A stretch of DNA of 52,530 bases from the NCBI GenBank assembly GCA_030747395.1, contig JASLKT010000004.1:1-52530 (forward strand), read 5' to 3'. The notes under the pieces were generated by a model, which was not told the DNA's origin, made no database searches, and saw only the letters and a program-made list of their open reading frames with translations. The stretch is from Candidatus Thalassarchaeaceae archaeon (GTDB lineage Archaea > Thermoplasmatota > Poseidoniia > Poseidoniales > Thalassarchaeaceae). Within the stretch, counting starts at the first letter, position 1. Each line of letters begins with the position of its first letter. Below are positions 1-44,877 of this stretch, one piece after another. Position numbers and translations under genes: made by a program.

Positions 1-66
1 TACGGGGCCGCTCGGACCAAAAACAACGAAGTTGATGTTCAAATAGTGAATGCCATAGCGGGAAAT

Positions 67-828
67 ATGGAAGCAAGCCAGTATTATGATTCATTGATCC
101 AGCAAGGTTACTCGCCTCAGCAAGCAGAACAGTATACTTCTCAACATTATCCGGGTTTTACTGCACAGCCAATAACGCCTATCCCAATACAGGATAGTGT
201 CGTGGGCGGGAACATACATTCGGGTGATGTGATACATCACCATCATGCTGCTCCTGCAGTGCAAGCAGAACCCGCACAAGAACAGTCTCTTTGGGCGCCG
301 GCTCAATCCGCAGCGCAGCCAGTTTTTCTTACTGAAACTAAGAAGAAAATTTACATCGCACCATGGGTGGGTGTTGGGTTGATTGTTTTCATGCTGATAA
401 TGCCCTTCGTTCAAGTGTCATTTGAAGGTGAAAATATTGGTGAAAGTATGTCAGGTTTCGAAATCATTGGTGAAATGGGTGAAGCGGCCTCTGAATCAGA
501 TGGTGGCGGTGACGGTGACGGTGATGATTTTGACATGAGCGACATCCCTGAAGAATGGGTATTGTTCGGGATTGCGATCCTCATGTTGATGTTTTCACCA
601 GTTGTCTATCTATTATTCGCAATCATTTCAACTGGATTACTGGCCTTCAAGAAGCATACATTGGTTGTCGGTATTTTGCACCTACTTTTCTTTGCCGTTT
701 TCTTCGCTTGTTCAGTTTTGGGTACGATTGAAATCGAAGGATACACCATGTCTGCTCATGCCAATATGGCCGGGTGGGGATTCTTTGGTGCTGGATTGGC
801 TGGAATCTTGCTCTGCATCAAGGCTTAG
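67..828 (+). CDS. Hypothetical membrane protein (N-terminal YY..L.QQGY...A..YT motif, Pro/Gln linker, ~4 TM helices)
   Basis: ORF 46..828; ATG at 67 lies ~25 nt after TATA-like TTCAAATA; several hydrophobic segments in the C-terminal half. Confidence 0.75.
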   Translation: MEASQYYDSLIQQGYSPQQAEQYTSQHYPGFTAQPITPIPIQDSVVGGNIHSGDVIHHHHAAPAVQAEPAQEQSLWAPAQSAAQPVFLTETKKKIYIAPWVGVGLIVFMLIMPFVQVSFEGENIGESMSGFEIIGEMGEAASESDGGGDGDGDDFDMSDIPEEWVLFGIAILMLMFSPVVYLLFAIISTGLLAFKKHTLVVGILHLLFFAVFFACSVLGTIEIEGYTMSAHANMAGWGFFGAGLAGILLCIKA

Positions 829-31571: not shown

Positions 31572-32324
31572 TCACTCTTCTTCGAATCCAATGGATTCAT
31601 CCTCTGCAAGTTCCATCATTTCCTCAATTGCTTCAGCATCATCGGGGTCAACTTGCGCATCTTTGTAACGCCGTTCTCTCTTTCGTCGTGCCGCTTCTAG
31701 TCCAGGAACTAGTGCATCAAACCGATTATCATCTTGGCGTGAATCAATCGATTCGAGATTGCGTGCAGACATCCGCTTTTTCCGTCTTTCAGTCTCAAGA
31801 TGTTTCAGAACAGATGAGTGTTCGGCACCTTGCAACAATCGTTCAATTGCTTGACTAGCCAATGGCAGTGCTTCTTCATCACCGATGATGACAACCGTCG
31901 AACCATAGATGACAATTTCTGCACCCGAATGCTCCTCAATCAATTCTCGAATACGTCCGTTGCGTCCGATGAGTCGGCTTCGAATGCGCCTCTGTTGGTT
32001 TGCATTCTTTCCAACATATTCTCGCATATCGTGTAGAATGAGGTGTTGATCATCCTTCAGCAACTGTAACGCTCTCTCTGGATTCATTCCGCGTCCAATC
32101 GCCCGAATGACATCTGGAAATTTCATGCGGAGGATGGGGTCAAATTCCTCATTCCATACCACAGATACATCGCCAGTGGTGGAATCAATATGGAGTTTTG
32201 AATTGGTCGCTTCTTCCAAGGCTCGACGTGTGACACCCTTGCGTCCAATCAGGACCGCAATGCGGTCTTGTGGGATTCGAGCCAAGCCCTCCATTGGCCC
32301 AGCGACCGAGGTCTCCTCTTTCAA
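31572..32324 (-). CDS. KH-domain pre-rRNA processing protein (Dim2/Pno1 family)
   Basis: RIPQDRIAVLIGRKG, IRAIGRG.NPERA, RLIGRNGRIRELIE, IYGSTV, GAEHSSV. Confidence 0.92.
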   Translation of the reverse strand: MKEETSVAGPMEGLARIPQDRIAVLIGRKGVTRRALEEATNSKLHIDSTTGDVSVVWNEEFDPILRMKFPDVIRAIGRGMNPERALQLLKDDQHLILHDMREYVGKNANQQRRIRSRLIGRNGRIRELIEEHSGAEIVIYGSTVVIIGDEEALPLASQAIERLLQGAEHSSVLKHLETERRKKRMSARNLESIDSRQDDNRFDALVPGLEAARRKRERRYKDAQVDPDDAEAIEEMMELAEDESIGFEEE

Positions 32325-34105
32325 GACGCCGATTGACGCCGATTGATCACACGACTCGCAAACAAGCCGGCGAGGAGCAAGAGGACGAAGTCTGGTGCAA
32401 AACCACTGACAGAACCGACCACCTCCGGATCGGCGGCACCAATGAGTAAGAATACCTCGTTGTTTCCTTCATCACGCTCTGAGATTACCTCATCCGGGTC
32501 AACAAATACTCGCAGGTCAAATTCACCTGCAGTCAACAAGGTAATGTTCACAGAAATACTCTCTTGTTGATCGATGAAACTATTTGCTGGAATGACCATT
32601 GAATTCAAGGCAGTCCATTGTGTCAATGAGTCACGACTCGCTGGGGCACTCTCAATTCTTACAACTACACTTCCAGAATAGAACTCGTTGGTGTTTATGG
32701 TTGCTTCAAGAACAACCGGATCATCTGAACCTGCTCTGACAATTAAGCGATCGAGTGAAGCATCAGAGATTGAGAAGTCAAGGCCTGGTAAGATGAGGAA
32801 ATGCGAAGCAGTCGTCGTCACCGTATTGCCTGCAGTATCGACAAGTGTTGCTCTTAGAGATAGATACTGCCCTGCTCTGGTTGACCAATCGATGGCAGCA
32901 GACAAATGATTTGAGGTTCCAGAGCCCACACTAAGCCAGTCGGATGAAATATCAGGTATTGTACCTGCACCATTGGAATCAAAGCCATATTCAAGGCTGC
33001 ATGAAGTGACATCGATTCCCGAGTGTGTATCGGTTGAATCGACGGTTACTGTAACCTGTCCAGATAACGAATCTGTGAGTTCAGGCAGAATCCATCCACC
33101 TGCTACGGGGGCGGCCCGGTCCACCATAATTGACACATTGAGTGGGTCGCCAATATTGCCGACACGATCAACCGCTCGGAATTGAATCGTTCGGATTCCT
33201 TCTTGCAAAGACATTGAACCATAGCCTGCAGCACCGATATCGGCCCATTCCTCAGTGCTATCGCGCACGTGGTAAGTGGAAATGCCTGAACCACCATTGT
33301 CATCCGCTCCACTCGATAAATCATTGAAAATCAAGGTTGTTGCAGCCGTCCAACTTCCGGGTGAGACGGAAAGAGATGGTGTCCCTACATCGGGGCCACT
33401 CCGATCAATTCCGATATGGATCGATGTTTGAGCTGAATTTCCTCCTTCATCAAATACGGAAAGAACAGGATTCCATACTCCCTCTGATAGGTCCCCCGGC
33501 GACCATGCCCATGTGTTGAGGATTGTACCCGGTCCATCTTGTGCGGGAGTTCCTGAACCAGGCACATCGGTTAGGGTTGCATGGGAAAGGTGTGAATCCG
33601 AGCCACTCCAATCAAAATTGATTGTGCCCGATTCAGAAGCCGTAAACCACGCACGATTGATAGTTGAAGAGCCGTCCCCAACAACTGCACCTGATGTGGT
33701 CAATGAGAGGCCACTAGGGACTGTATTGTCAACTGTGAAAGTAGGACTGACCACCCAACCAGTAGTGGTTGAATTTGTGAACGTCCCTTCGATTCTCAGT
33801 TGGTAATCTCCATCACTATGCACACTTGTATCCCATGCTGTTAGCCATGGTGCTGTGGTGATATTGGCAATGGGAGTCCATGCGGAACCATCTGAGACTT
33901 CGACGTCGATGTAATCCATACTGACCACATTCGTTGCACGAACTGTGTAAGTTCCCGACAGAATCTGTCCTGAATTGGGGCCTCCACTGAAGTCCAAATC
34001 ATCGCTTCGGCCAGATGTTGCATCCACATCAATCCAAGCCCCATGGGGTGCTAGACACAGCAGAATCACCAAGGATATGGCAAGAATGAAGCGGCGAGAA
34101 AGCAT
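32321..34105 (-). CDS. Secreted Ig-like/CARDB protein with C-terminal membrane anchor
   Basis: Signal peptide; repeated D..GN / VDN..P Ig-like units; VDPDEVISERDEGNN; terminal hydrophobic helix plus RR. Confidence 0.85.
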   Translation of the reverse strand: MLSRRFILAISLVILLCLAPHGAWIDVDATSGRSDDLDFSGGPNSGQILSGTYTVRATNVVSMDYIDVEVSDGSAWTPIANITTAPWLTAWDTSVHSDGDYQLRIEGTFTNSTTTGWVVSPTFTVDNTVPSGLSLTTSGAVVGDGSSTINRAWFTASESGTINFDWSGSDSHLSHATLTDVPGSGTPAQDGPGTILNTWAWSPGDLSEGVWNPVLSVFDEGGNSAQTSIHIGIDRSGPDVGTPSLSVSPGSWTAATTLIFNDLSSGADDNGGSGISTYHVRDSTEEWADIGAAGYGSMSLQEGIRTIQFRAVDRVGNIGDPLNVSIMVDRAAPVAGGWILPELTDSLSGQVTVTVDSTDTHSGIDVTSCSLEYGFDSNGAGTIPDISSDWLSVGSGTSNHLSAAIDWSTRAGQYLSLRATLVDTAGNTVTTTASHFLILPGLDFSISDASLDRLIVRAGSDDPVVLEATINTNEFYSGSVVVRIESAPASRDSLTQWTALNSMVIPANSFIDQQESISVNITLLTAGEFDLRVFVDPDEVISERDEGNNEVFLLIGAADPEVVGSVSGFAPDFVLLLLAGLFASRVINRRQSAS

Positions 34106-34238
34106 CGGCACCAATCCTTCCACAATATGCACCGTCCTTCAAGGCTTTCCAATGGGTATCGTAATACTTCACTTGCTTGGGGTATTTGGGTGTATTCGGG
34201 AAGCAGGTTTGAAGTGCCTCGGCTGTTCTCCTGAACCC

Positions 34239-36938
34239 ATGGAGCGGCGCCCGCTGGCACCTGTCTTGTGCGCTATTCTATTCCTCGCACCAATATTGGC
34301 AATCTCAAGTCCTGTTGGCGCTGAGTTATCAGGTAACGTTGCGTTTAGCACTGAAGGCCTTTCGATGAGCCCTTCAACAGCGGTTGAAGGAGGGAGTGTA
34401 ACTTTCACTCTTTCACTCCAGAATATCGCAAACGTCATTGCTGAAGATGTGGTTGTTGAATTCCACAAAAATAGCTTCGAAATGGGGAACCCCGCCGCAT
34501 TACACATCGTTGACGTCGATGCAAGTTCCTTTGAAGATGTGGACTTTGTTTGGACAAACCTCGCATGGGGGGATGGTGAACAGACATTGGTAATCCGCGT
34601 CAACCACAACAATGATCCAAAAATTATCTCACATGACTTCGATGTTGAGGGACTGGCCAATCTTCGACTGTCCCACTTTGAATTGTCATCCTCTACGGAT
34701 ATACACGAAGGGGATCCCGTTCAAATTCAAATTCAGGTTGAAAATGCTGGACATGCCGATGCTCCAGCCAGCCATCTTGAATTGACTGTTGCAGGAAGTG
34801 CAAATCTCCTCTCAGTGTCTCCATTACAAGTTGGAGACACGGTGTGGATGAATCAGACCGCAACGGCACCATCAGCGGGGACATACGATGTGTTTGGCGT
34901 AGTCAATGCGGACAGCGGAGACAACATCGTCGAATCAACTACAGCAGACAATTCAGAATCCCGTTCCTTGATTGTAGACACGTTGCCCGATTACCGACAT
35001 GCAGATGGCCCAACGGTTGTAGCAGATCCGGGTTTAATTGGTCCTTGGACCGTCAGTGGAACCATCGCAAGAGACGGAGGAACCGGGTCGACAACAGCTC
35101 CACTTGAAATTCGAATTCAGAATGGGATCGCTCTTGAAGTAGTGACTCTGCAATTCACTGATGAAGATGCATTCGCTGAGTACTCGGTGACCATCACTTC
35201 AGCGAACTTGACAGATACAACCCCTGGAGATGTTCATCTTGATCTAGAGATTGATCCCTCTGGTAGTGTTGCTCAATCCAATCCATTCAACAACTTAGAA
35301 TCAACATCTTTGACGATTTATCAGGAACCTAACGTGGTTGTTACAGGGGCCTCACCCCAAACTCCGACCACCGTTCCAGGAAGTATGGTTACATTCACGG
35401 TGACATTGCAAAATGTAGGCATGGTTGACACGAAGGGCGTATTATCGGCTACATTCGATGGCCAACCACTCACACCTCAAAATATCACGCTCCTATCATC
35501 AAATACAGGAAATGAAGGACAATATAGCGCAACTTTCACTGCCTTTGCGGAAGGTCTCACACGCGACATTCCCTTTGAGGCCAGTTGGACCAAAACCCCT
35601 GGTTTTTATGATCGATTGGAAACTGACAACGTCGCGACTAGTTCGGTCAGTCTCAATTCAAATCTCCAGTTGCAATTCCTAGTGAACACAGAGGGATGGA
35701 CGCCCGATGCACCACCACTCTATGCTGGATATGATTACGTTTACACAATCGACGCGCGCGCTCAAAGTGGAGCTGGTAGCGAAACGTTCGATTGTGTCGA
35801 TCGTTCAACGGGAGAGATATTGGACACCACCTCTACATTAGAATTCAGTACCGGTCAACAACAAACCATTCGCTGTGTGATTGCCGCGAAACAACCAGGA
35901 CAAATCGAACTGGCAATCACACCCCATGGCTCTAGTGTACAGACGCCTCATGCTGAGGTTTGGTCTGTAGAATTTGAAGATGGAGCCGATGTTTCAGGTG
36001 GCGATGATTCATCTTCGATAATTCTCTTTGTGATTGCCGGCTTGGTCGCATTGGGTGCACTGATTGGCGCCGTCATTTTGACACGACGTGGATTGGCTGA
36101 TGCTGACCGTGAAACATACGATTTGTGCCCAGCATGTGACGGTGAACTTGAGGGCGATGAAGATATATGTCCACATTGCGACTTCGATCTTAGAGTCGGT
36201 CGTGCAAAATTCCACGATTGCCTTGATTGCAATTCCACAATCCCTTCCATGCTAGAACACTGTCCCTATTGTGGTTCGGAACAAGATATCGGCACCCATT
36301 ATGCCCGACGTGAACGAAAATTCAAACCCCTTCCTGAAGAAATTGGTGAGACGCCTGAAGAAGAAGAAGAAGATGAAGATGAAATCGTTCGAGGTCACGA
36401 AGGTTTCGATACCCATGCAGGTGAACTTGGTTTCAGTGAAGAACAGTGGGAAGGTGAGTGGGATGAGAACCTCACTGAAGCAGAGACCTATTTCGATGCC
36501 AAAGAAGAAGCCCGCCTTGCGGCACAAGAAGCCGCCACCTCCGAAGACGTTGAAACCGAGAACATCGTTGAAAAGACGGAACTCAGCGAAGCCATGGATG
36601 AATTACCAGATCACGATTTAGATGCATTCCTAGGGGATGTTAAATCGAGACAGCACCTCTCTGATGAAGATGTGGAATTGACTGCTTCAGATGCAAGTTA
36701 TCGTGAACAAATTTTCGAACTCACTGGCGAAGACGGTGTATTGCCGGGACAAGAAGTCAATGTCGATTCAATGGTTGACAATACAGTGGTTGGAAATGAA
36801 GTACGTTCTGTCAGCAGTGATTTTACAATTCACGATGGCGATGAACCAGAACCTAAGATTGAACCTGAATCCGAACCCACCACTGATGAACCCACATCCA
36901 AGCGCCGTGGCGTCCGTCGTCGCAAGAAGGACGAGTAA
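34239..36938 (+). CDS. CARDB-domain membrane protein with cytoplasmic double Zn ribbon and acidic tail
   Basis: Signal peptide from ATG 34239; CARDB-like repeats; TM; CPAC-CPHC-CLDC-CPYC; Asp/Glu-rich tail ending KRRGVRRRKK. Confidence 0.87.
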   Translation: MERRPLAPVLCAILFLAPILAISSPVGAELSGNVAFSTEGLSMSPSTAVEGGSVTFTLSLQNIANVIAEDVVVEFHKNSFEMGNPAALHIVDVDASSFEDVDFVWTNLAWGDGEQTLVIRVNHNNDPKIISHDFDVEGLANLRLSHFELSSSTDIHEGDPVQIQIQVENAGHADAPASHLELTVAGSANLLSVSPLQVGDTVWMNQTATAPSAGTYDVFGVVNADSGDNIVESTTADNSESRSLIVDTLPDYRHADGPTVVADPGLIGPWTVSGTIARDGGTGSTTAPLEIRIQNGIALEVVTLQFTDEDAFAEYSVTITSANLTDTTPGDVHLDLEIDPSGSVAQSNPFNNLESTSLTIYQEPNVVVTGASPQTPTTVPGSMVTFTVTLQNVGMVDTKGVLSATFDGQPLTPQNITLLSSNTGNEGQYSATFTAFAEGLTRDIPFEASWTKTPGFYDRLETDNVATSSVSLNSNLQLQFLVNTEGWTPDAPPLYAGYDYVYTIDARAQSGAGSETFDCVDRSTGEILDTTSTLEFSTGQQQTIRCVIAAKQPGQIELAITPHGSSVQTPHAEVWSVEFEDGADVSGGDDSSSIILFVIAGLVALGALIGAVILTRRGLADADRETYDLCPACDGELEGDEDICPHCDFDLRVGRAKFHDCLDCNSTIPSMLEHCPYCGSEQDIGTHYARRERKFKPLPEEIGETPEEEEEDEDEIVRGHEGFDTHAGELGFSEEQWEGEWDENLTEAETYFDAKEEARLAAQEAATSEDVETENIVEKTELSEAMDELPDHDLDAFLGDVKSRQHLSDEDVELTASDASYREQIFELTGEDGVLPGQEVNVDSMVDNTVVGNEVRSVSSDFTIHDGDEPEPKIEPESEPTTDEPTSKRRGVRRRKKDE

Positions 36939-36998: not shown

Positions 36999-37622
36999 AT
37001 GTCCAACTTGCGCAAAAGGACGATGAGTGCCGTCATGGCCTTGCTTTTCGTATCCTTAGCCATGCCTGGTTGTCTCTCACTGGTCGTGGGTAGAGAGATG
37101 ATGGAAAGTGCGAGAGGGGTCCCGAAAGTTCAAGAAAAAGCCATTCTGTACGACCTATCGCACACATTTGTCTTTGAAGATTCAGCAACTCCAACAATTC
37201 TGTATGAAGAAATTCCAATTGATGATACTGTCAGCGAAATTGTCATAAATTTTGAAACAGAAGTAAATGTGTTCCTCGGCGAAGCAGATATCCGCTATGT
37301 CCACGTTGAATTGTTGTGGTGTGAAGATGATGGTGCAGGTAATCCCATGAACTGCGATGAGGCAAATCCAATTTACGAAGTCATGGCTGACAATGGAACT
37401 TACGAACCCGAACGAATTGAGTTGGATCGATACACAGACTCCTTCGAAAGTGGTCTTTGGACTCTTACAGTCGAAGGTCGTGGGACTTCCAACCCCATCG
37501 AAACAGGGGTTGGTCTTCTGGATGAAGCCGATTGGTGGAGTCTCAAACTCAATGTAATCCGACCGTGTTTGTCATTTCCTGAAAGTCCCGAGGAGTGCAC
37601 ACCAACGATTGAATTTGAGTAA
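36999..37622 (+). CDS. Hypothetical lipoprotein
   Basis: Basic N-terminus, hydrophobic stretch and lipobox-like AMPGC; GAGG upstream. Confidence 0.75.
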   Translation: MSNLRKRTMSAVMALLFVSLAMPGCLSLVVGREMMESARGVPKVQEKAILYDLSHTFVFEDSATPTILYEEIPIDDTVSEIVINFETEVNVFLGEADIRYVHVELLWCEDDGAGNPMNCDEANPIYEVMADNGTYEPERIELDRYTDSFESGLWTLTVEGRGTSNPIETGVGLLDEADWWSLKLNVIRPCLSFPESPEECTPTIEFE

Positions 37623-38840
37623 TCAAACCAAACTCTGAGGACACTTTGAACGTCGCGAACAATTTCGGCATTTCCCAATTCGCTCATGGTTTCTTTTCGC
37701 CCCACCTTCAACCATGAGTCGTTGAATTTCTTGTATTGATGAATGCAATTCTGCTTTGCTGGAGTCATCCCATGCAACTGTGAACAATGAATCACCCCCA
37801 TAGCGTAGAATACCATAATTGGGCACAGTTCCAGTCGTCTCGCTCACAAGATGAAGGTAAGCGAGCAATTGCATTCGATGACTATCATGTGGTTCGATGG
37901 GCACTTTACCAGTTTTTTGTTCAACAGGAATGAATTGGTTGTCAATCTTTACGATTTGATCAGGTCGCCCCCGTAATCCAATTTCATCATCCATAAGCAA
38001 TGCAGCACTCTCTCCGGAATCATCGCTGTAAGCCAGTACTTCCGTTTTCGATAATCCTGCTTCCTCCTTTGCATCAAGCACGTCTCTACCTGATATGAGC
38101 ACACGGTGTAATTGCCATGCAGAGAAAAGCAACCATGCCAATGTAATCACAATGAGTGAAAATGTCAGTACGCTCCTATTTTCGGCCCAATAGATTGCCA
38201 ATCCGTGTAATGCAACAGCAATGGAAGCTAGAAGCAAGCGAACTTCCGTTTTTCCCCCTTTACCAATACCAGTTTCCGTTCCAATATCAAATGGGGAAAT
38301 CATCTCTTCTTCCTGCAATCCAGTGCCTTCGATGGTTGGTGGTTGGGCCAATCCGAAAGGGCGACCCAACCAGCGACGCCAAGGTAACGAGATGAGTGCA
38401 ATTGCCAATACCAACCAAACCCCTGCCAAAATGATGAGGTAACGTCCAATATCTTGGATGAATTCTTCGGAAATTGTTCCTTCATTGACAAAGAAAAATG
38501 CAGCTGAGTCAGCCGAAAGAGCACAAACAACAGTAATCCACCACGACCACACGACAACATCTCGTGATGCACGTGTTTCTGAGCGCTTGAAATCCACCAT
38601 TTTTTTGTGGATGCGATCATGGGAGAGCATACCCTGTTCCAGTGCATCACCTTCACCGCTGACACCGGCTTTGGATAATTGCCAGGAAACTGGGCAGTAG
38701 GTGTGCCTCTCCAAATCCGATGCTGAAACAGGTAGTACCATGCCCTGCAAATTTTCCCAATATCCATCCTCGCGGCGAGTTCCTTCAGCGATCGAACCTG
38801 AAAGTTCAAGGGCGATTTCGACTGATTTATCCTCGCCCAT
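37623..38840 (-). CDS. Solo Cas4-like PD-(D/E)xK Fe-S nuclease with four inserted TM helices
   Basis: SASDLERHTYCP, LRGRPD, IPVEQKT, HRMQLLAY, KCRNCSRRSKC; four hydrophobic helices in the middle; start ATG 38840 or GTG 38858. Confidence 0.88.
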   Translation of the reverse strand: MGEDKSVEIALELSGSIAEGTRREDGYWENLQGMVLPVSASDLERHTYCPVSWQLSKAGVSGEGDALEQGMLSHDRIHKKMVDFKRSETRASRDVVVWSWWITVVCALSADSAAFFFVNEGTISEEFIQDIGRYLIILAGVWLVLAIALISLPWRRWLGRPFGLAQPPTIEGTGLQEEEMISPFDIGTETGIGKGGKTEVRLLLASIAVALHGLAIYWAENRSVLTFSLIVITLAWLLFSAWQLHRVLISGRDVLDAKEEAGLSKTEVLAYSDDSGESAALLMDDEIGLRGRPDQIVKIDNQFIPVEQKTGKVPIEPHDSHRMQLLAYLHLVSETTGTVPNYGILRYGGDSLFTVAWDDSSKAELHSSIQEIQRLMVEGGAKRNHERIGKCRNCSRRSKCPQSLV

Positions 38841-39009
38841 GAGCGAATCAAGGTCCACTGAAAGTTAAGCGTTTTTCCGGCTTGCCCCGGCAACCCCCAG
38901 AAGATTCACACCCTCTCTCCATTCGGGACACTGCGTCGGAAAATCTCGTGTGCGCGAGCGAAGCGGTTATGAAGAGGCGGTGGGTGGCGAGGCCGCACGA
39001 GGCTTGGAA

Positions 39010-39618
39010 ATGACTGAATCGATGCTAGTACCTCACGAAACCTACGAGGTTCACAAGGTACACATTGGTGCTCTTCAGAAGAGTGCGGACATGAAACCCT
39101 TCCTCAGCGATGCCCCCGGTGATGGCTCTGGCCTGCATTTGATTGATTTGGAGCAAACCGACGCACGAATGCGAGTCGTCGCTCAATTCTTGAACAGATA
39201 CGATGCAAAACGAATCCTCGTTGTGAGTGCACGACAGTATGGGCAGCGTCCGGCTCGTAAATTTGCCCAATCGATTGGAGCAATGCACATTGTGGGTCGC
39301 TTCATTCCTGGCACTCTAACGAACCCCGGTCTACGCACATACATCGAGCCTGAACTCATTGTTGTGACAGACCCTCAAGCCGATCAACAATCTCTTTCTG
39401 AAGCCGTCAGCACCGGTCTACCTGTTGTTGCTATCTGCGATGCCAACAATAACCTAAGAAATGTCGACCTCTGCTTGCCTGCCAACAACAAGGGCCGTCA
39501 AAGTTTGTCTCTAATCTTCTGGCTCCTCTCACGCGAAGTTCTCAAGGTTCGCGGCATCATGGACGATGATACATGGGCTGCTATGCAAGACGTCACCGAA
39601 TGGGAATCCACTTTCTGA
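39010..39618 (+). CDS. rps2: 30S ribosomal protein S2
   Basis: VHIG, GRFIPGTLTNP, VTDPQADQQ, VDLCLPANNKGRQSL..IFWLLSREVL. Confidence 0.97.
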   Translation: MTESMLVPHETYEVHKVHIGALQKSADMKPFLSDAPGDGSGLHLIDLEQTDARMRVVAQFLNRYDAKRILVVSARQYGQRPARKFAQSIGAMHIVGRFIPGTLTNPGLRTYIEPELIVVTDPQADQQSLSEAVSTGLPVVAICDANNNLRNVDLCLPANNKGRQSLSLIFWLLSREVLKVRGIMDDDTWAAMQDVTEWESTF

Positions 39619-39640: not shown

Positions 39641-40687
39641 ATGCCCGAGCAAGTGCCATTGTTCCTCGCACCGATGGCGGGTGTCACCGATGTGGCATAT
39701 CGGCTGCTTGCCAGAGAAGCTGGAGCAGATTTCACTTCGACTGAGTTCACAGCTGCGAGCGGCCTCAGTCGAAAAGATGCCAAATCGTGGGCCAAGGTCG
39801 AAACCCACCCAAGGGAATCACCGTTCATTCCTCAGATATTTGGTGGCATCGAAGACGAAATGGTTGAAACCGCTCGTTTGTTGTCAAAAAACGCTGATGT
39901 CATCGATCTAAATTTCGGTTGCCCTGCACCGAAGGTGACCAAAACTTGTGCGGGTGCTGCAATGATGGCAGACCCTGACAACCTCATTTCTATGGTCGAA
40001 CGTTGCATAGAAGCCAGTGATGTTCCGGTCTCAGTGAAGATGCGATTGGGAACAAGTCACGGTGCGCTGACTGTATTCGAAATCGCTGAGCGTTGCGCCC
40101 AACTGGGCGTCCTACGCATCTGTGTCCATGGGCGCACACTCTCTCAGAAATATCGAGGGGAAGCCGATTGGGAGATGATTCGCCAAGTTGTCGAAATCGC
40201 ACAGCCCTACGACGTCCCTGTGATTGCCAACGGTGACATCACCAATGCAAAGAGCGCCGCTCGTTGCTTGGAAGTGACTGGGGCAGCCGGATTGATGATT
40301 GGCCGGGGAGCCATCGGCGATCCTTGCATTTTCGGACGAATCAAGACAGAATTGGGTTGGGAAGATTTCGATGCACCTTGGGGTGACGCGAATGAGGCCG
40401 GTCAGAAACATTGGGCTTGGAACCGTTACGTGGAATTGGTTGACGAAATTGGTGGACCCTATGCTGCTCGAAACATGAAGCAGCACGCGATTTCATTCAC
40501 CAAAGGTCTCCCAGGAGGGAAGGAATTACGACCACATCTCCACGCCATCAAGGATTTCCGTTTGATTGGCGAACCCCTGAATATCGCCTTGGAGGCATTC
40601 TCCCAGCGCCGCTACAACACGTTGGTTGTGCCCGAAGCAATTGAAGCGGCAGCAACCGCTTCCGAGGCAGAAGGGTGGCGTCGATGA
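39641..40687 (+). CDS. dus: tRNA-dihydrouridine synthase (DusB-like)
   Basis: LAPMAGVTD..YR, IDLNFGCP, GAAMM, VSVKMRLG, HGRT, PVIANGDI, MIGRGA.GDP; GAGGTGG SD. Confidence 0.93.
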   Translation: MPEQVPLFLAPMAGVTDVAYRLLAREAGADFTSTEFTAASGLSRKDAKSWAKVETHPRESPFIPQIFGGIEDEMVETARLLSKNADVIDLNFGCPAPKVTKTCAGAAMMADPDNLISMVERCIEASDVPVSVKMRLGTSHGALTVFEIAERCAQLGVLRICVHGRTLSQKYRGEADWEMIRQVVEIAQPYDVPVIANGDITNAKSAARCLEVTGAAGLMIGRGAIGDPCIFGRIKTELGWEDFDAPWGDANEAGQKHWAWNRYVELVDEIGGPYAARNMKQHAISFTKGLPGGKELRPHLHAIKDFRLIGEPLNIALEAFSQRRYNTLVVPEAIEAAATASEAEGWRR

Positions 40688-41793
40688 GTGATACTCGTCG
40701 CGGGTTGAAGGGCGTCGGAACACTGTCGTTGATTTTCGTAATGCTTCTGATTGTCCAGATGATTTCCCCCTTTCTTGGCTGGGATGACCCCGAAGTTGAG
40801 GAGGGTTTCGTGATTGATGAAGTGACCAACGGTCTTGGAGGCCCGGCCTGCCTTGAGTGGATTTCTAATTACGACCTACTGGTTTGCGATCGTGATGGCG
40901 GCACAATCAAACTGTTGAATTTCGACATCGATTCCAACGATTCGAGATGGACACCAACTGACAATAGTTCCATCCTGCTTACGGATTTACATGAGCCCCA
41001 TGACATCCTCATCCTTGAGGACCACATCCTCATCTCTGAGCGGGGCAAATTAACCCGCATCAATCAGACTAGCCTTGATCAAACTCTGAACGAGGCACCA
41101 CGTTGGACGATTATCGATGATGTACCCACGGGCAATCATCAGACGAACAATCTCGACATCATGCCCAATGGAACTGTGATTTGGCATGTGGGATCAACCT
41201 GCAACATCTGTGATGAGGTGGATGGACGCAATGCTGCACTGCTATGGGTGAATTCGAGCACGGGAGAGCACGGCATTCTTGCAAGTGGCGTGCGCAATTC
41301 ATTCCATGGTATCTGGGTGCCCGACATGGGTTATGTTTTCAGCGACAATGGTCGAGATTGGGAAGGGAATCATCCCCCTGAGGAGGTAAACCTCCTGATT
41401 GCTGGAGGGGATTACGGTTGGCCTGACGATGATCCTGAGCATCCAGTTCCGGAAGGAACCATTGGGTCGGTTGCTACATGGACGCCCCACTCCAGCCTTA
41501 ACAATCTGGCATATCGTCCACTGGACTCCCCTTTCCCTGGCGGGAATCACACCGTCTATGCCACCGTTTACGGCTCGTGGAATGCCATCGAACCTGTGGG
41601 TCATGAAATCGTCCGCATCGATTTCACAACGAATACTAGCGCGCCACAAGGATGGTCATCTGAAACATCGGTTTTCGCATCAGACCTTAGTGCACCGCTA
41701 CCGATTGCATTCCACCCCAGTGGAAACCATCTGTTCTATACGAACTTTCTAGACGATGGCACGTTATATGTTATTTCACCGATTAATTATTAA
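40684..41793 (+). CDS. Glucose/sorbosone dehydrogenase-like (PQQ-dependent sugar dehydrogenase family) beta-propeller, membrane-anchored
   Basis: GSTCNICDE, ASGVRNS, SDNGRDW, PPEEVNLL..GGDYGWP, PHSS, GSWN; N-terminal TM; ATGA overlap with dus. Confidence 0.85.
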   Translation: MSDTRRGLKGVGTLSLIFVMLLIVQMISPFLGWDDPEVEEGFVIDEVTNGLGGPACLEWISNYDLLVCDRDGGTIKLLNFDIDSNDSRWTPTDNSSILLTDLHEPHDILILEDHILISERGKLTRINQTSLDQTLNEAPRWTIIDDVPTGNHQTNNLDIMPNGTVIWHVGSTCNICDEVDGRNAALLWVNSSTGEHGILASGVRNSFHGIWVPDMGYVFSDNGRDWEGNHPPEEVNLLIAGGDYGWPDDDPEHPVPEGTIGSVATWTPHSSLNNLAYRPLDSPFPGGNHTVYATVYGSWNAIEPVGHEIVRIDFTTNTSAPQGWSSETSVFASDLSAPLPIAFHPSGNHLFYTNFLDDGTLYVISPINY

Positions 41794-44196: not shown

Positions 44197-44877
44197 CTAG
44201 TGTGACAATTCATCGATTGAGCGATTTCGGGAGAAGATGTATTCGATTAGGTGCTTCATACCTCTACAATCATGTTCATTGTATGTAACTAGGGTATCTA
44301 ATCGTTCTTTAGATTGTTCTGATATCATTGAATATCTTCCTCTCCTACGGCATTGACTAACAAGATTCCCAATCGCACTGCTTGGACGAAAGTCACCAAG
44401 GTCATCGGGATATTCATACCCCACATAGTCTAGTTTTAGATAGTCCTTCAGAGATACCCTTCTTCCTTCGTTCCTTGCAACGTCGTTCAATCGTCTGAAT
44501 GTTGTCCTGCGATTCCTCTTAAAATATGATTTAGTAAGTAAATTCGCATTCCTGTAGAGTTCTTCCATGGGTTCTTTGTAATAATCATCCTCAGTGATGA
44601 TGTTGAATTCATGTTCTGAATAACCAATGATTACTCGATCTTCTACCAATGCTTTTTCAACCAACCATTCGCGGAATTGGTCGAGTTCGCGACAACCTAA
44701 TTCATGAGGGGATTCACTCAGGCAAAAAAATTCTGAATCCACAATGTCAATATCATAATTGTCACCAATCAGATACCCTGCGAATGTAGGAGGGTGATTG
44801 CGACCTCCTTCAAAATCTAGCCAAATCGCCCTCTCGAATTCCTCGCGGGTTAGTGAGCGAGGATATTCGCTTGCCAT
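44197..44877 (-). CDS. Hypothetical protein, possible RNase H-fold (YprB/DEDD-like) nuclease; low GC
   Basis: IWLDFEG, IIGYSEHEF, SLKDY, LVTYNEHDC motifs; AT-rich with AGA/AGG Arg codons. Confidence 0.7.
   Translation of the reverse strand: MASEYPRSLTREEFERAIWLDFEGGRNHPPTFAGYLIGDNYDIDIVDSEFFCLSESPHELGCRELDQFREWLVEKALVEDRVIIGYSEHEFNIITEDDYYKEPMEELYRNANLLTKSYFKRNRRTTFRRLNDVARNEGRRVSLKDYLKLDYVGYEYPDDLGDFRPSSAIGNLVSQCRRRGRYSMISEQSKERLDTLVTYNEHDCRGMKHLIEYIFSRNRSIDELSH

Follow-up and report, generated by a model that had tools for sequence, protein, structure and literature searches.

A Cas4-family nuclease predicted to be interrupted by membrane hairpins and encoded outside CRISPR loci in Poseidoniales archaea

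The gene and its divided Cas4 domain

We analysed a 52,530-nucleotide stretch of DNA from a Candidatus Thalassarchaeaceae archaeon of the order Poseidoniales (assembly GCA_030747395.1, contig JASLKT010000004.1, positions 1 to 52,530 of the forward strand), which is called the window below. On its minus strand, beside the ribosomal protein gene rpS2, lies an open reading frame (ORF) of 411 aa that appears to encode a Cas4-family nuclease with membrane helices inserted in the middle of its fold. The ORF starts with GTG and its stop codon occupies 37623-37625. Homologues are mostly 399-415 aa long with N-termini mostly at M7 of the 411-aa numbering, and the ATG at 38840 is preceded, at a distance of ~25-32 nt, by a TTAACTTT element. 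From these two observations we infer a 405-aa product, so that the true coding sequence is probably 37623-38840. The coordinates of all features are collected in Table 1.

The Cas4 motifs could be placed directly in the translation: SASDLERHTYCP starts at residue 45 and contains C55, GRPD lies at 297-300, EQK at 313-315 and QLLAY at 330-334, and the cysteines of the ORF are those at positions 55, 112, 397, 400 and 406. Three profiles matched above their cut-offs, namely PF01930 (38.7 bits, cut-off 22.7), PF12705 (36.8 bits, cut-off 22) and, with a narrow pass, TIGR00372 (68.5 bits, cut-off 65). These matches are confined to the C-terminal part of the protein, starting at 256-324 and ending at 402-410 (282-407 for TIGR00372 and PF12705), and they cover only the second half of each profile, as expected because the domain is split. 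With PADLOC, the best match reached 8.6e-21, and all matches were to Cas4 models except weaker ones to DruK (PD-(D/E)XK) and Cas1b/Cas1g.

We aligned 57 relatives with identities down to 24% (alignment A1). Residues Y54, C55, G76, G297, P299, D300, K315, P320, S326, H327, Q330, G349, Y353, R389, H391, C397, C400, R402 and C406 are invariant in this alignment, while H80, E313 and Y334 are conserved in at least 90% of the members. We take G76xxxH80 to be the counterpart of the metal-ligand His helix of Cas4; since H80 precedes the insert, both the catalytic centre and the cluster would draw on residues from either side of it. Searched against PDB sequences, the A1 profile found only Cas4 proteins (8d3l at 7.1e-8, 4r5q, 4ic1 and 7mi4). 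Its alignment to 8d3l consists of two blocks. In the first, which is weak alone (independent E-value 9.8), profile positions 7-69 face residues 4-67 and the YCP cysteine of the family falls on the Cys of the FQFC segment; in the second, positions 240-340 face residues 103-202 and CxxCx5C falls on CNNCSLQSIC. The matched cysteines of this type I-C Cas4 are presumably its Fe-S cluster ligands, and in Cas4/AddB-type nucleases one N-terminal and three C-terminal cysteines together hold a [4Fe-4S] cluster. These data suggest that the ORF encodes a complete Cas4-family PD-(D/E)xK nuclease with a predicted Cys4 iron-sulfur site, which is probably active.

Table 1 Features of the Cas4-family gene and its immediate surroundings (TM, transmembrane helix; pLDDT, predicted local distance difference test; residue numbers refer to the 411-aa ORF)
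Feature	Position in window	Strand	Basis or remark
Whole ORF, 411 aa, GTG start; probable coding sequence 37623-38840	37623..38858	-	ORF listing, homologue N-termini
N-terminal Cas4-fold piece, residues 40-100	38559..38741	-	Conserved motifs, alignment to 8d3l residues 4-67, pLDDT 85-97
SASDLERHTYCP motif with putative cluster ligand C55	C55 codon 38694-38696	-	In N-terminal piece
G76xxxH80 helix with putative metal-ligand His	H80 codon 38619-38621	-	In N-terminal piece
Predicted membrane hairpin 1, residues 101-159 (TM1 ~101-124, TM2 ~140-159)	38382..38558	-	Hydropathy, AlphaFold2 helices, hairpin repeat
TM2-TM3 loop, residues 160-205, predicted cytoplasmic	38244..38381	-	Alignment, low pLDDT
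Predicted membrane hairpin 2, residues 206-249 (TM3 ~206-224, TM4 ~229-249)	38112..38243	-	Hydropathy, AlphaFold2, hhalign
C-terminal Cas4-fold piece, residues 270-411	37626..38051	-	Profiles, motifs, structure alignment
GRPD300	D300 codon 37959-37961	-	In C-terminal piece
E313-Q-K315	37914-37922	-	In C-terminal piece
Q330xxxY334	37857-37871	-	In C-terminal piece
C397/C400/C406	37641-37670	-	In C-terminal piece
Divergent intergenic region between Cas4 gene and rpS2	38841..38949	.	TATA-like TTAACTTT inside; putative promoter, from sequence
rpS2, ribosomal protein S2, divergent neighbour	38950..39618	+	PF00318 match; context, not functional partner
207-aa protein with signal/lipobox-like N-terminus (...LAMPGCLS...), convergent neighbour	36999..37622	+	No family match; context only

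Membrane helices, predicted fold and hairpin repeat

The insert is located between the metal-ligand His helix and the strand of the catalytic Asp. Kyte-Doolittle hydropathy in 19-residue windows peaked at 106-124 (1.65), 140-158 (2.69), 206-224 (1.71) and 229-247 (2.15), and each hydrophobic segment contains 0-1 charged residues when the translation is read by eye. TM1 and TM2 are joined by a short acidic outer loop, TM3 and TM4 by an outer turn of 5-6 residues, and the second helix of each hairpin bears a near-invariant tryptophan (W148 in TM2 and W242 in TM4). The loop between TM2 and TM3 opens with a conserved WRRWLGRPFGLAQPP stretch, the remainder being of low confidence in the model (pLDDT <50 at 171-198); its length has a median of 48 residues and a minimum of 15 in the 56 four-helix members of A1.

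Helices were counted between the motifs in 324 full-length members of the family, defined by an N-terminal YCP-type motif, GxPD and CxxCx5C. Of these, 270 are predicted to have four helices, 22 two, 21 eight, 10 three and one seven, so the number is even in 313 of the 324. The 11 odd cases share their insert length with four- or eight-helix members, and thus one helix probably lies below the threshold in these proteins. Lysine plus arginine (K+R) was then counted in the four 12-residue flanks on the nuclease side and in the two opposite loops. The nuclease side had the excess in 56/56 four-helix A1 members (median 8 vs 2; P0181 was left out, as its motif anchors are missing), and both counts come from simple predictors applied to sequences many of which are mutually related. 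A signal peptide is absent from the protein, and Fe-S clusters are inserted in the cytoplasm; we placed the nuclease in the cytoplasm on these two grounds together with the positive-inside K+R bias. Both nuclease halves are therefore predicted to lie on the cytoplasmic membrane face, and we predict the Poseidoniales enzyme to be an integral membrane protein containing helical hairpins.

An AlphaFold2 model built with A1 had a mean pLDDT of 82.5 and a predicted template modelling score of 0.76, with helices at 71-125, 131-157, 203-224 and 228-266 and low confidence at the 171-198 loop. In a Foldseek search of this model against the PDB, the best matches were Cas4 proteins (8d3l_J, 1.2e-4). Alignment with VIA-align gave Z 19.7 for 7mi4_A (root-mean-square deviation 2.4 Å over 178 residues, model 29..411 on chain 5..201), Z 19.0 for 8d3l_I (188/218 residues), Z 12.5 for 4ic1_B and Z 9.8 for 4R5Q (Pcal_0546), and Z 11.8-14.5 for the nuclease domains of AdnAB, Exo5 and Dna2. 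As only 142 residues make up the C-terminal half, 46 or more residues of the 8d3l_I alignment precede residue 270 and are placed together with the C-terminal half. The two halves are thus predicted by the model to rejoin into one Cas4 fold, an arrangement in which the four cysteines would meet. The His helix runs unbroken into TM1 (helix 71-125), and TM4 extends beyond the membrane (helix 228-266) toward the first core strand at 274; the catalytic domain is accordingly modelled on a predicted two-helix stalk beside the membrane.

The two hairpins resemble each other. When the TM1-TM2 block (96-162) was compared with the TM3-TM4 block (200-264) by hhalign, the probability was 97% (E 6.6e-11, score 46.8), while 30 column shuffles scored at most 9.3 and the reversed block 13.3. 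Common to both is a second helix of the form 'L-x-i-l-a-L-x-W-L-l', in which W148 and W242 are nearly invariant. A hidden Markov model (HMM) of the hairpin was searched with the bias filter off. Among 12 eight-helix relatives, ten gave four non-overlapping copies each, P0166 gave two and P0194 none (domain E 6e-17 to 0.03); among 12 two-helix relatives, five gave one copy at E <=0.01. By these profile comparisons, the insert is a duplicated two-helix hairpin, and the family carries 1, 2 or 4 copies of a single module, a relationship that is new here. The module has no Pfam name, and the best ESM Atlas matches to the membrane part (residues 85-270; 0.76-0.79) were all unnamed Thermoplasmatota clusters.

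Most of a preliminary description of this locus, made from the letters of the DNA, is borne out by these results. The 411-aa minus-strand ORF is present as it had reported, and each of the motifs that it listed (C55, GRPD300, E313-Q-K315, Q330xxxY334 and C397/C400/C406) was located in the translation. Its reading of the protein as Cas4-like agrees with the PF01930, PF12705 and TIGR00372 matches, which fall on the C-terminal half only, and its four hydrophobic helices coincide with the four Kyte-Doolittle peaks and the AlphaFold2 helices. It had also argued that an even number of helices would return both halves to one face, so that the cluster could still form; the number is even in nearly all full-length members, and the model superposes on 7mi4_A across both halves.

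Distribution, CRISPR independence and gene neighbourhood

The source genome (1.61 Mb, 84.5% complete) holds one copy of the gene. Within the order, the A1 profile matched 129/201 genomes, comprising 99/99 in family f3, 2/2 in f2 and 27/99 in the window's own family f1 (G000 not counted); in f1, the gene occurs in all genomes of six genera and gave no match in seven others (listed genomes 1.3-1.6 Mb). Beyond the order, 357 loci were confirmed in species-representative genomes, for 80 of which labels and neighbourhoods were listed. Among these 80 are Thermoplasmata, Methanomassiliicoccales, Aciduliprofundum/DHVE2, Saliniplasma and Halarchaeoplasma, among others, with six labelled only 'Methanobacteriota archaeon' and one only 'archaeon'. 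Four-helix forms are present in metagenome-assembled genomes of Aciduliprofundum and Methanomassiliicoccus, lineages that have cultured members. In a sample of the phylum, 219/301 genomes and 103/136 genera matched at E <=1e-3, a threshold that also admits ordinary Cas4 domains. Among IMG/VR viral contigs, 20 pattern matches yielded 0 confirmed relatives.

No cas1, cas2 or repeat array was found within the window, nor any Cas1 match or CRISPR-like array in the source genome, in which seven array candidates were rejected as short-period or coding tandem repeats. Likewise, no arrays were detected in 92 related loci (1.07 Mb); one candidate, in L079, was rejected as a 69-bp whole-unit tandem repeat. 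Cas1 was matched in 1/201 Poseidoniales genomes and in none of the 61 that are at least 90% complete. A six-frame PF01930 search missed the gene in its own genome, the route being insensitive to divergent members, so that the Cas1 and NurA negatives reported here are read with caution and rest on their controls. Judged from these comparisons, the gene is CRISPR-independent, vertically inherited and single-copy in Poseidoniales and much of Thermoplasmatota.

Several unusual relatives were seen along the way. The sole Cas1 match (L025, G037:C35:1-3292) comes from a contig of 3.3 kb and is a Cas4-Cas1 fusion ORF of 550 aa, separate from the membrane Cas4 of that genome; a mobile element or contamination in binning may account for it. 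Genome G062 has, besides an intact copy on contig C7, a second copy at C6:85825-86948 in four frame pieces with an in-frame TGA, which looks like a decaying duplicate. P0235, P0242 and ~30 other representatives are ~170 aa long and contain one hydrophobic helix followed by the C-terminal Cas4 half only, with an extra Cys ~62 residues before CxxC, while P0143, P0156, P0165 and P0218 (~215-250 aa) contain only the N-terminal Cys motif and helices. These short half forms could be split genes or truncated gene calls. P0212, a multi-helix relative of 635 aa, has a TRAM domain (PF01938, 1.5e-15) C-terminal to its Cas4 half.

In 12/12 Poseidoniales loci, drawn from three families, the gene and rpS2 are divergent neighbours within a block ordered KH-CARDB-CARDB-lipo207-Cas4-rpS2-Dus-HTH-HTH-HxlR; the 207-aa lipoprotein-like gene adjoins the Cas4 gene in 10/12. 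In 80 distant loci the picture was different: Cas4 was shown in 79, and any other gene of the window in one only. The commonest neighbours there are GlmS, a TPD-domain protein, a sugar nucleotidyltransferase, a Fe-ADH-family dehydrogenase (on reading, glycerol-1-phosphate-dehydrogenase-like) and small membrane proteins. De novo clustering of 914 neighbour ORFs gave no family in more than 21/77 loci, and no cas family or helicase appeared among the annotated neighbour clusters, which cover only part of the neighbours.

Two claims of the preliminary description about this context fared differently. That the gene is independent of CRISPR, with no cas1, cas2 or array in the window, agrees with what was found there and with the rarity of Cas1 across the order compared with the membrane Cas4 (1/201 vs 129/201 genomes), as well as with the absence of arrays from the 92 loci. 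Its argument from the neighbours to a role in processing incoming DNA fails, because the rpS2, lipoprotein and CARDB genes represent only order-wide synteny (12/12 loci) and none of them accompanies the gene in distant relatives.

Some of the neighbouring genes are worth recording in their own right. Of the 68 distant loci that have a gene upstream, 16 carry there, directly adjacent and in the same orientation, the TPD-domain protein (PF14811, 1.8e-42; e.g. L093:3493-4293, plus strand). It belongs to a predicted PD-(D/E)xK-type nuclease family and may form a nuclease operon with Cas4 in one subclade. In 5/68 loci (L082:1393-4002, plus strand, and four others), an 870-aa protein with two PLD-like, lamin-tail and PKD domains lies just upstream and may be a secreted phosphodiesterase or nuclease. 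The window itself contains two large divergent CARDB/Big-domain surface proteins, at 32321-34132 (minus strand) and ~34200-36938 (plus strand), and at the end of the latter are a membrane helix, a double zinc ribbon (PF12773) and a long acidic tail. In 11/12 Poseidoniales loci both accompany the Cas4 locus in synteny, and neither was found within 8 kb of rpS2 in three genomes without the Cas4 gene. Neither Pfam nor PADLOC matched the 207-aa protein or the ORFs at 40675-41793 (plus strand, 372 aa) and 44197-44877 (minus strand, 226 aa), and in none of the 12 syntenic loci did the 372-aa ORF figure among the matched genes of the window.

Metatranscriptomes from two RNA libraries each gave one contig for the gene: an identical one of 151 nt lying inside it, and another over its 5' end. 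Sampled-word shares were 0.05-0.12 and most contigs cover rpS2; uncovered parts of the Cas4 gene are uninformative.

Proposed role, rival explanations and known systems

We propose, with a probability of roughly 45%, that the gene encodes a CRISPR-independent, membrane-tethered Cas4-family nuclease with a reassembled fold, which is confined to the cell periphery and acts on DNA at the inner membrane face. The halves would rejoin on the cytoplasmic face, where an Fe-S cluster can be inserted, and the tether would keep a potentially self-damaging DNA-end or single-stranded-DNA nuclease at the periphery. There the enzyme would act on injected or imported linear DNA or on stray chromosomal ends, and the nucleoid would be spared through this confinement. 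Catalytic activity, the Fe-S cluster, topology, substrate and biological role are what we infer in this proposal. According to the accessible part of PMC12501428, the solo-Cas4 of Methanosarcina mazei is a DNA nuclease that depends on metal and carries a [4Fe-4S] cluster, and growth slows when it is overexpressed, which fits a need to restrain such a nuclease. A bolder version, which we consider improbable, is that the hairpin modules assemble protomers into a membrane conduit or entry-site complex coupling DNA passage to Cas4 processing; it could act during virus injection, nutritional uptake or exchange, as a CRISPR-independent barrier or import nuclease ancestral to Thermoplasmatota. A homodimer prediction (two copies of residues 20-411, with A1) scored 0.00 vs a mark of 0.42 and weighs neither way on oligomerisation.

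Several observations weigh against the proposal of a tethered nuclease at the periphery. The helix predictions rest on hydropathy and AlphaFold2 only, and the last 20 residues of the model, which form the C-terminal Cys region, have a pLDDT of 73-77. Expression evidence is thin, with DNA carry-over possible, and no functional partner gene emerges from the distant neighbourhoods. The accessible part of PMC12501428 reports that the M. mazei enzyme was not induced by virus challenge, and the near-universal, syntenic, single-copy inheritance differs from what defence genes typically show, making the foreign-DNA part of the proposal less convincing. Finally, seven f1 genera gave no match, and in three examined genomes from two of these genera the gene is missing at the rpS2 locus; the loss is clean in two of the three (L111 and L112), where the 207-aa gene directly adjoins rpS2. 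The function is thus dispensable, and the two-helix form P0160 was not found as a replacement in five genomes of genera without the gene.

The main rival, which we regard as unlikely but worth serious attention, is a housekeeping repair or recombination nuclease for 5'-end resection or DNA-end processing, comparable to the Cas4 relatives AddB, Dna2 and Exo5. Here the anchor would serve only for regulation, or for a site of replication or segregation attached to the membrane, and the enzyme would have nothing to do with foreign DNA. The core-gene pattern (every f3 genome, single copy, kept synteny and 103 of the 136 genera in the phylum sample) speaks for it, as do the structural likeness to the AdnAB, Exo5 and Dna2 nuclease domains, the predicted TPD/PF14811 nuclease upstream on the same strand in 16/68 distant loci, and the RNase HII and ribonucleotide reductase genes nearby in some distant loci. 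In addition, the resection nuclease NurA (PF09376) was matched in 0/61 Poseidoniales genomes, the source genome included (59 of them with completeness of 90% or more and contamination of 5% or less; control positive in 7/14 known genomes), a negative that is weak because the same search route missed PF01930 in the source genome. Genera without the Cas4 gene also lack a NurA match, so the gene is not the order's sole resection enzyme. Moreover, an enzyme fixed in the membrane would have limited access to the nucleoid, no helicase partner appears among the annotated neighbour clusters, and the loss of the gene from seven genera argues against a purely essential role. Far less probable, in our estimation, is a protein that retains the Cas4 fold and whose main task is not DNA cutting: an iron-sulfur or redox sensor, or a structural membrane protein. 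The cluster may indeed be regulatory, being dispensable for catalysis in the M. mazei solo-Cas4 (accessible part of PMC12501428), and the TM2-TM3 loop bears a conserved motif, but the invariance or near-invariance of H80, D300, E313, K315, Q330 and Y334 down to 24% identity is hard to explain without catalysis.

Two further explanations deny either the membrane or the CRISPR independence. We think it very improbable that the helices form a soluble stalk or coiled coil and that the protein is a cytosolic solo-Cas4 of the usual kind bearing a long insert. The hydrophobicity of TM1 and TM3 is only moderate (1.65 and 1.71), and model helices 80-270 also align to SMC, JetABC and Shroom coiled coils at Z ~10-11; however, long-helix matches at Z ~10 are common background, TM2 and TM4 reach 2.69 and 2.15, and the segments are hydrophobic on all faces and almost uncharged by eye. 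The K+R excess flanking the nuclease side only, in all 56 members, and the even helix numbers, with the odd cases having the insert length of four- or eight-helix members, likewise point to the membrane. Hardly credible is a true CRISPR adaptation Cas4 whose cas1, cas2 and array lie elsewhere or are unassembled, for which one could cite the name 'CRISPR-associated exonuclease Cas4' borne by homologues in source records, the narrow pass of the equivalog model TIGR00372 and the incomplete source genome (84.5%). Against this stand the Cas1 counts (1/201, that one a separate Cas4-Cas1 fusion, and 0 in the 61 genomes at least 90% complete), the lack of arrays in the source genome and the 92 related loci, and the lack of any cas family among the annotated neighbour clusters.

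Poseidoniales reportedly belong to the most abundant surface-ocean archaea (accessible part of PMC10160649). They are essentially without CRISPR, yet most keep a single-copy core Cas4-type nuclease apparently rebuilt as a membrane protein. If the proposal of a tethered nuclease is true, a catalytic Fe-S domain tolerates membrane insertion in the middle of its fold, and a repeat-based route (1, 2 and 4 hairpins) leads from a soluble to a membrane-bound enzyme. It would also offer a concrete way into the question of solo-Cas4 function, since the site at which the enzyme is fixed predicts where its substrate DNA has to be found. Public records name the proteins 'Dna2/Cas4 domain-containing protein' or 'CRISPR-associated exonuclease Cas4', the latter being misleading for this clade.

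Canonical Cas4 (PF01930/TIGR00372/COG1468) has been solved as the type I-G Cas4-Cas1 of Geobacter (7MI4, 7MI5), the type I-C protein (8D3L), SSO0001 (4IC1) and Pcal_0546 (4R5Q), and the membrane Cas4 is predicted to share its fold (Z 19.7 for 7MI4, 19.0 for 8D3L, 12.5 for 4IC1 and 9.8 for 4R5Q). The His, D, ExK and QxxxY motifs and one N-terminal plus three C-terminal cysteines are common to both. Canonical Cas4 is a compact, contiguous, soluble domain of ~160-220 residues, whereas the membrane Cas4 is not contiguous, having ~170 residues of hairpins where canonical Cas4 has ~35 (8d3l 68-102, outside both aligned blocks). It is also a core chromosomal gene without cas1, cas2 or arrays, while canonical Cas4 sits in a cas operon. 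By its lack of linkage to cas1, cas2 and arrays, it does not group with CRISPR adaptation genes and fits the solo-Cas4 category, whose members are likewise Cas4-family genes outside CRISPR-cas loci (accessible parts of Hudaiberdiev et al. 2017, PMC5704561, and Rentz et al. 2025, PMC12501428). The described solo-Cas4s are treated as soluble, in contrast to the predicted integral membrane protein here, and the accessible part of PMC5704561 contains no 'transmembrane' and one unrelated 'membrane'.

With AddB/AdnAB, Dna2, Exo5 and MGME1 the protein has the PD-(D/E)xK core in common (structural matches Z 10-14.5). In most of them a cluster ties the N-terminal segment to the C-terminal one. Those enzymes are soluble and usually helicase-fused or helicase-partnered; the membrane Cas4 has no helicase domain, and no conserved helicase neighbour appeared among the annotated clusters. 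The open literature searched held no description of a membrane-inserted Cas4, which subscription journals and supplementary tables (arCOG lists) might hold, and the accessible parts of PMC5704561, PMC13621843, PMC10354927, PMC11785009, PMC11706807, PMC5332604 and PMC9258230 make no mention of one. The membrane-interrupted Cas4 is thus apparently a conserved form undescribed so far. Its closest counterparts are the other Thermoplasmatota forms with 2, 4 or 8 helices, which also have the N-terminal [LIV]E[KR][YF]xYCPLS motif, the C-terminal block HRNH...GKCxxCSRRxxCPE and the same insert position. The Poseidoniales form (~400-415 aa) differs from them in its long TM2-TM3 loop and longer N-terminus, while other forms have 1 or 4 hairpins and different neighbours.

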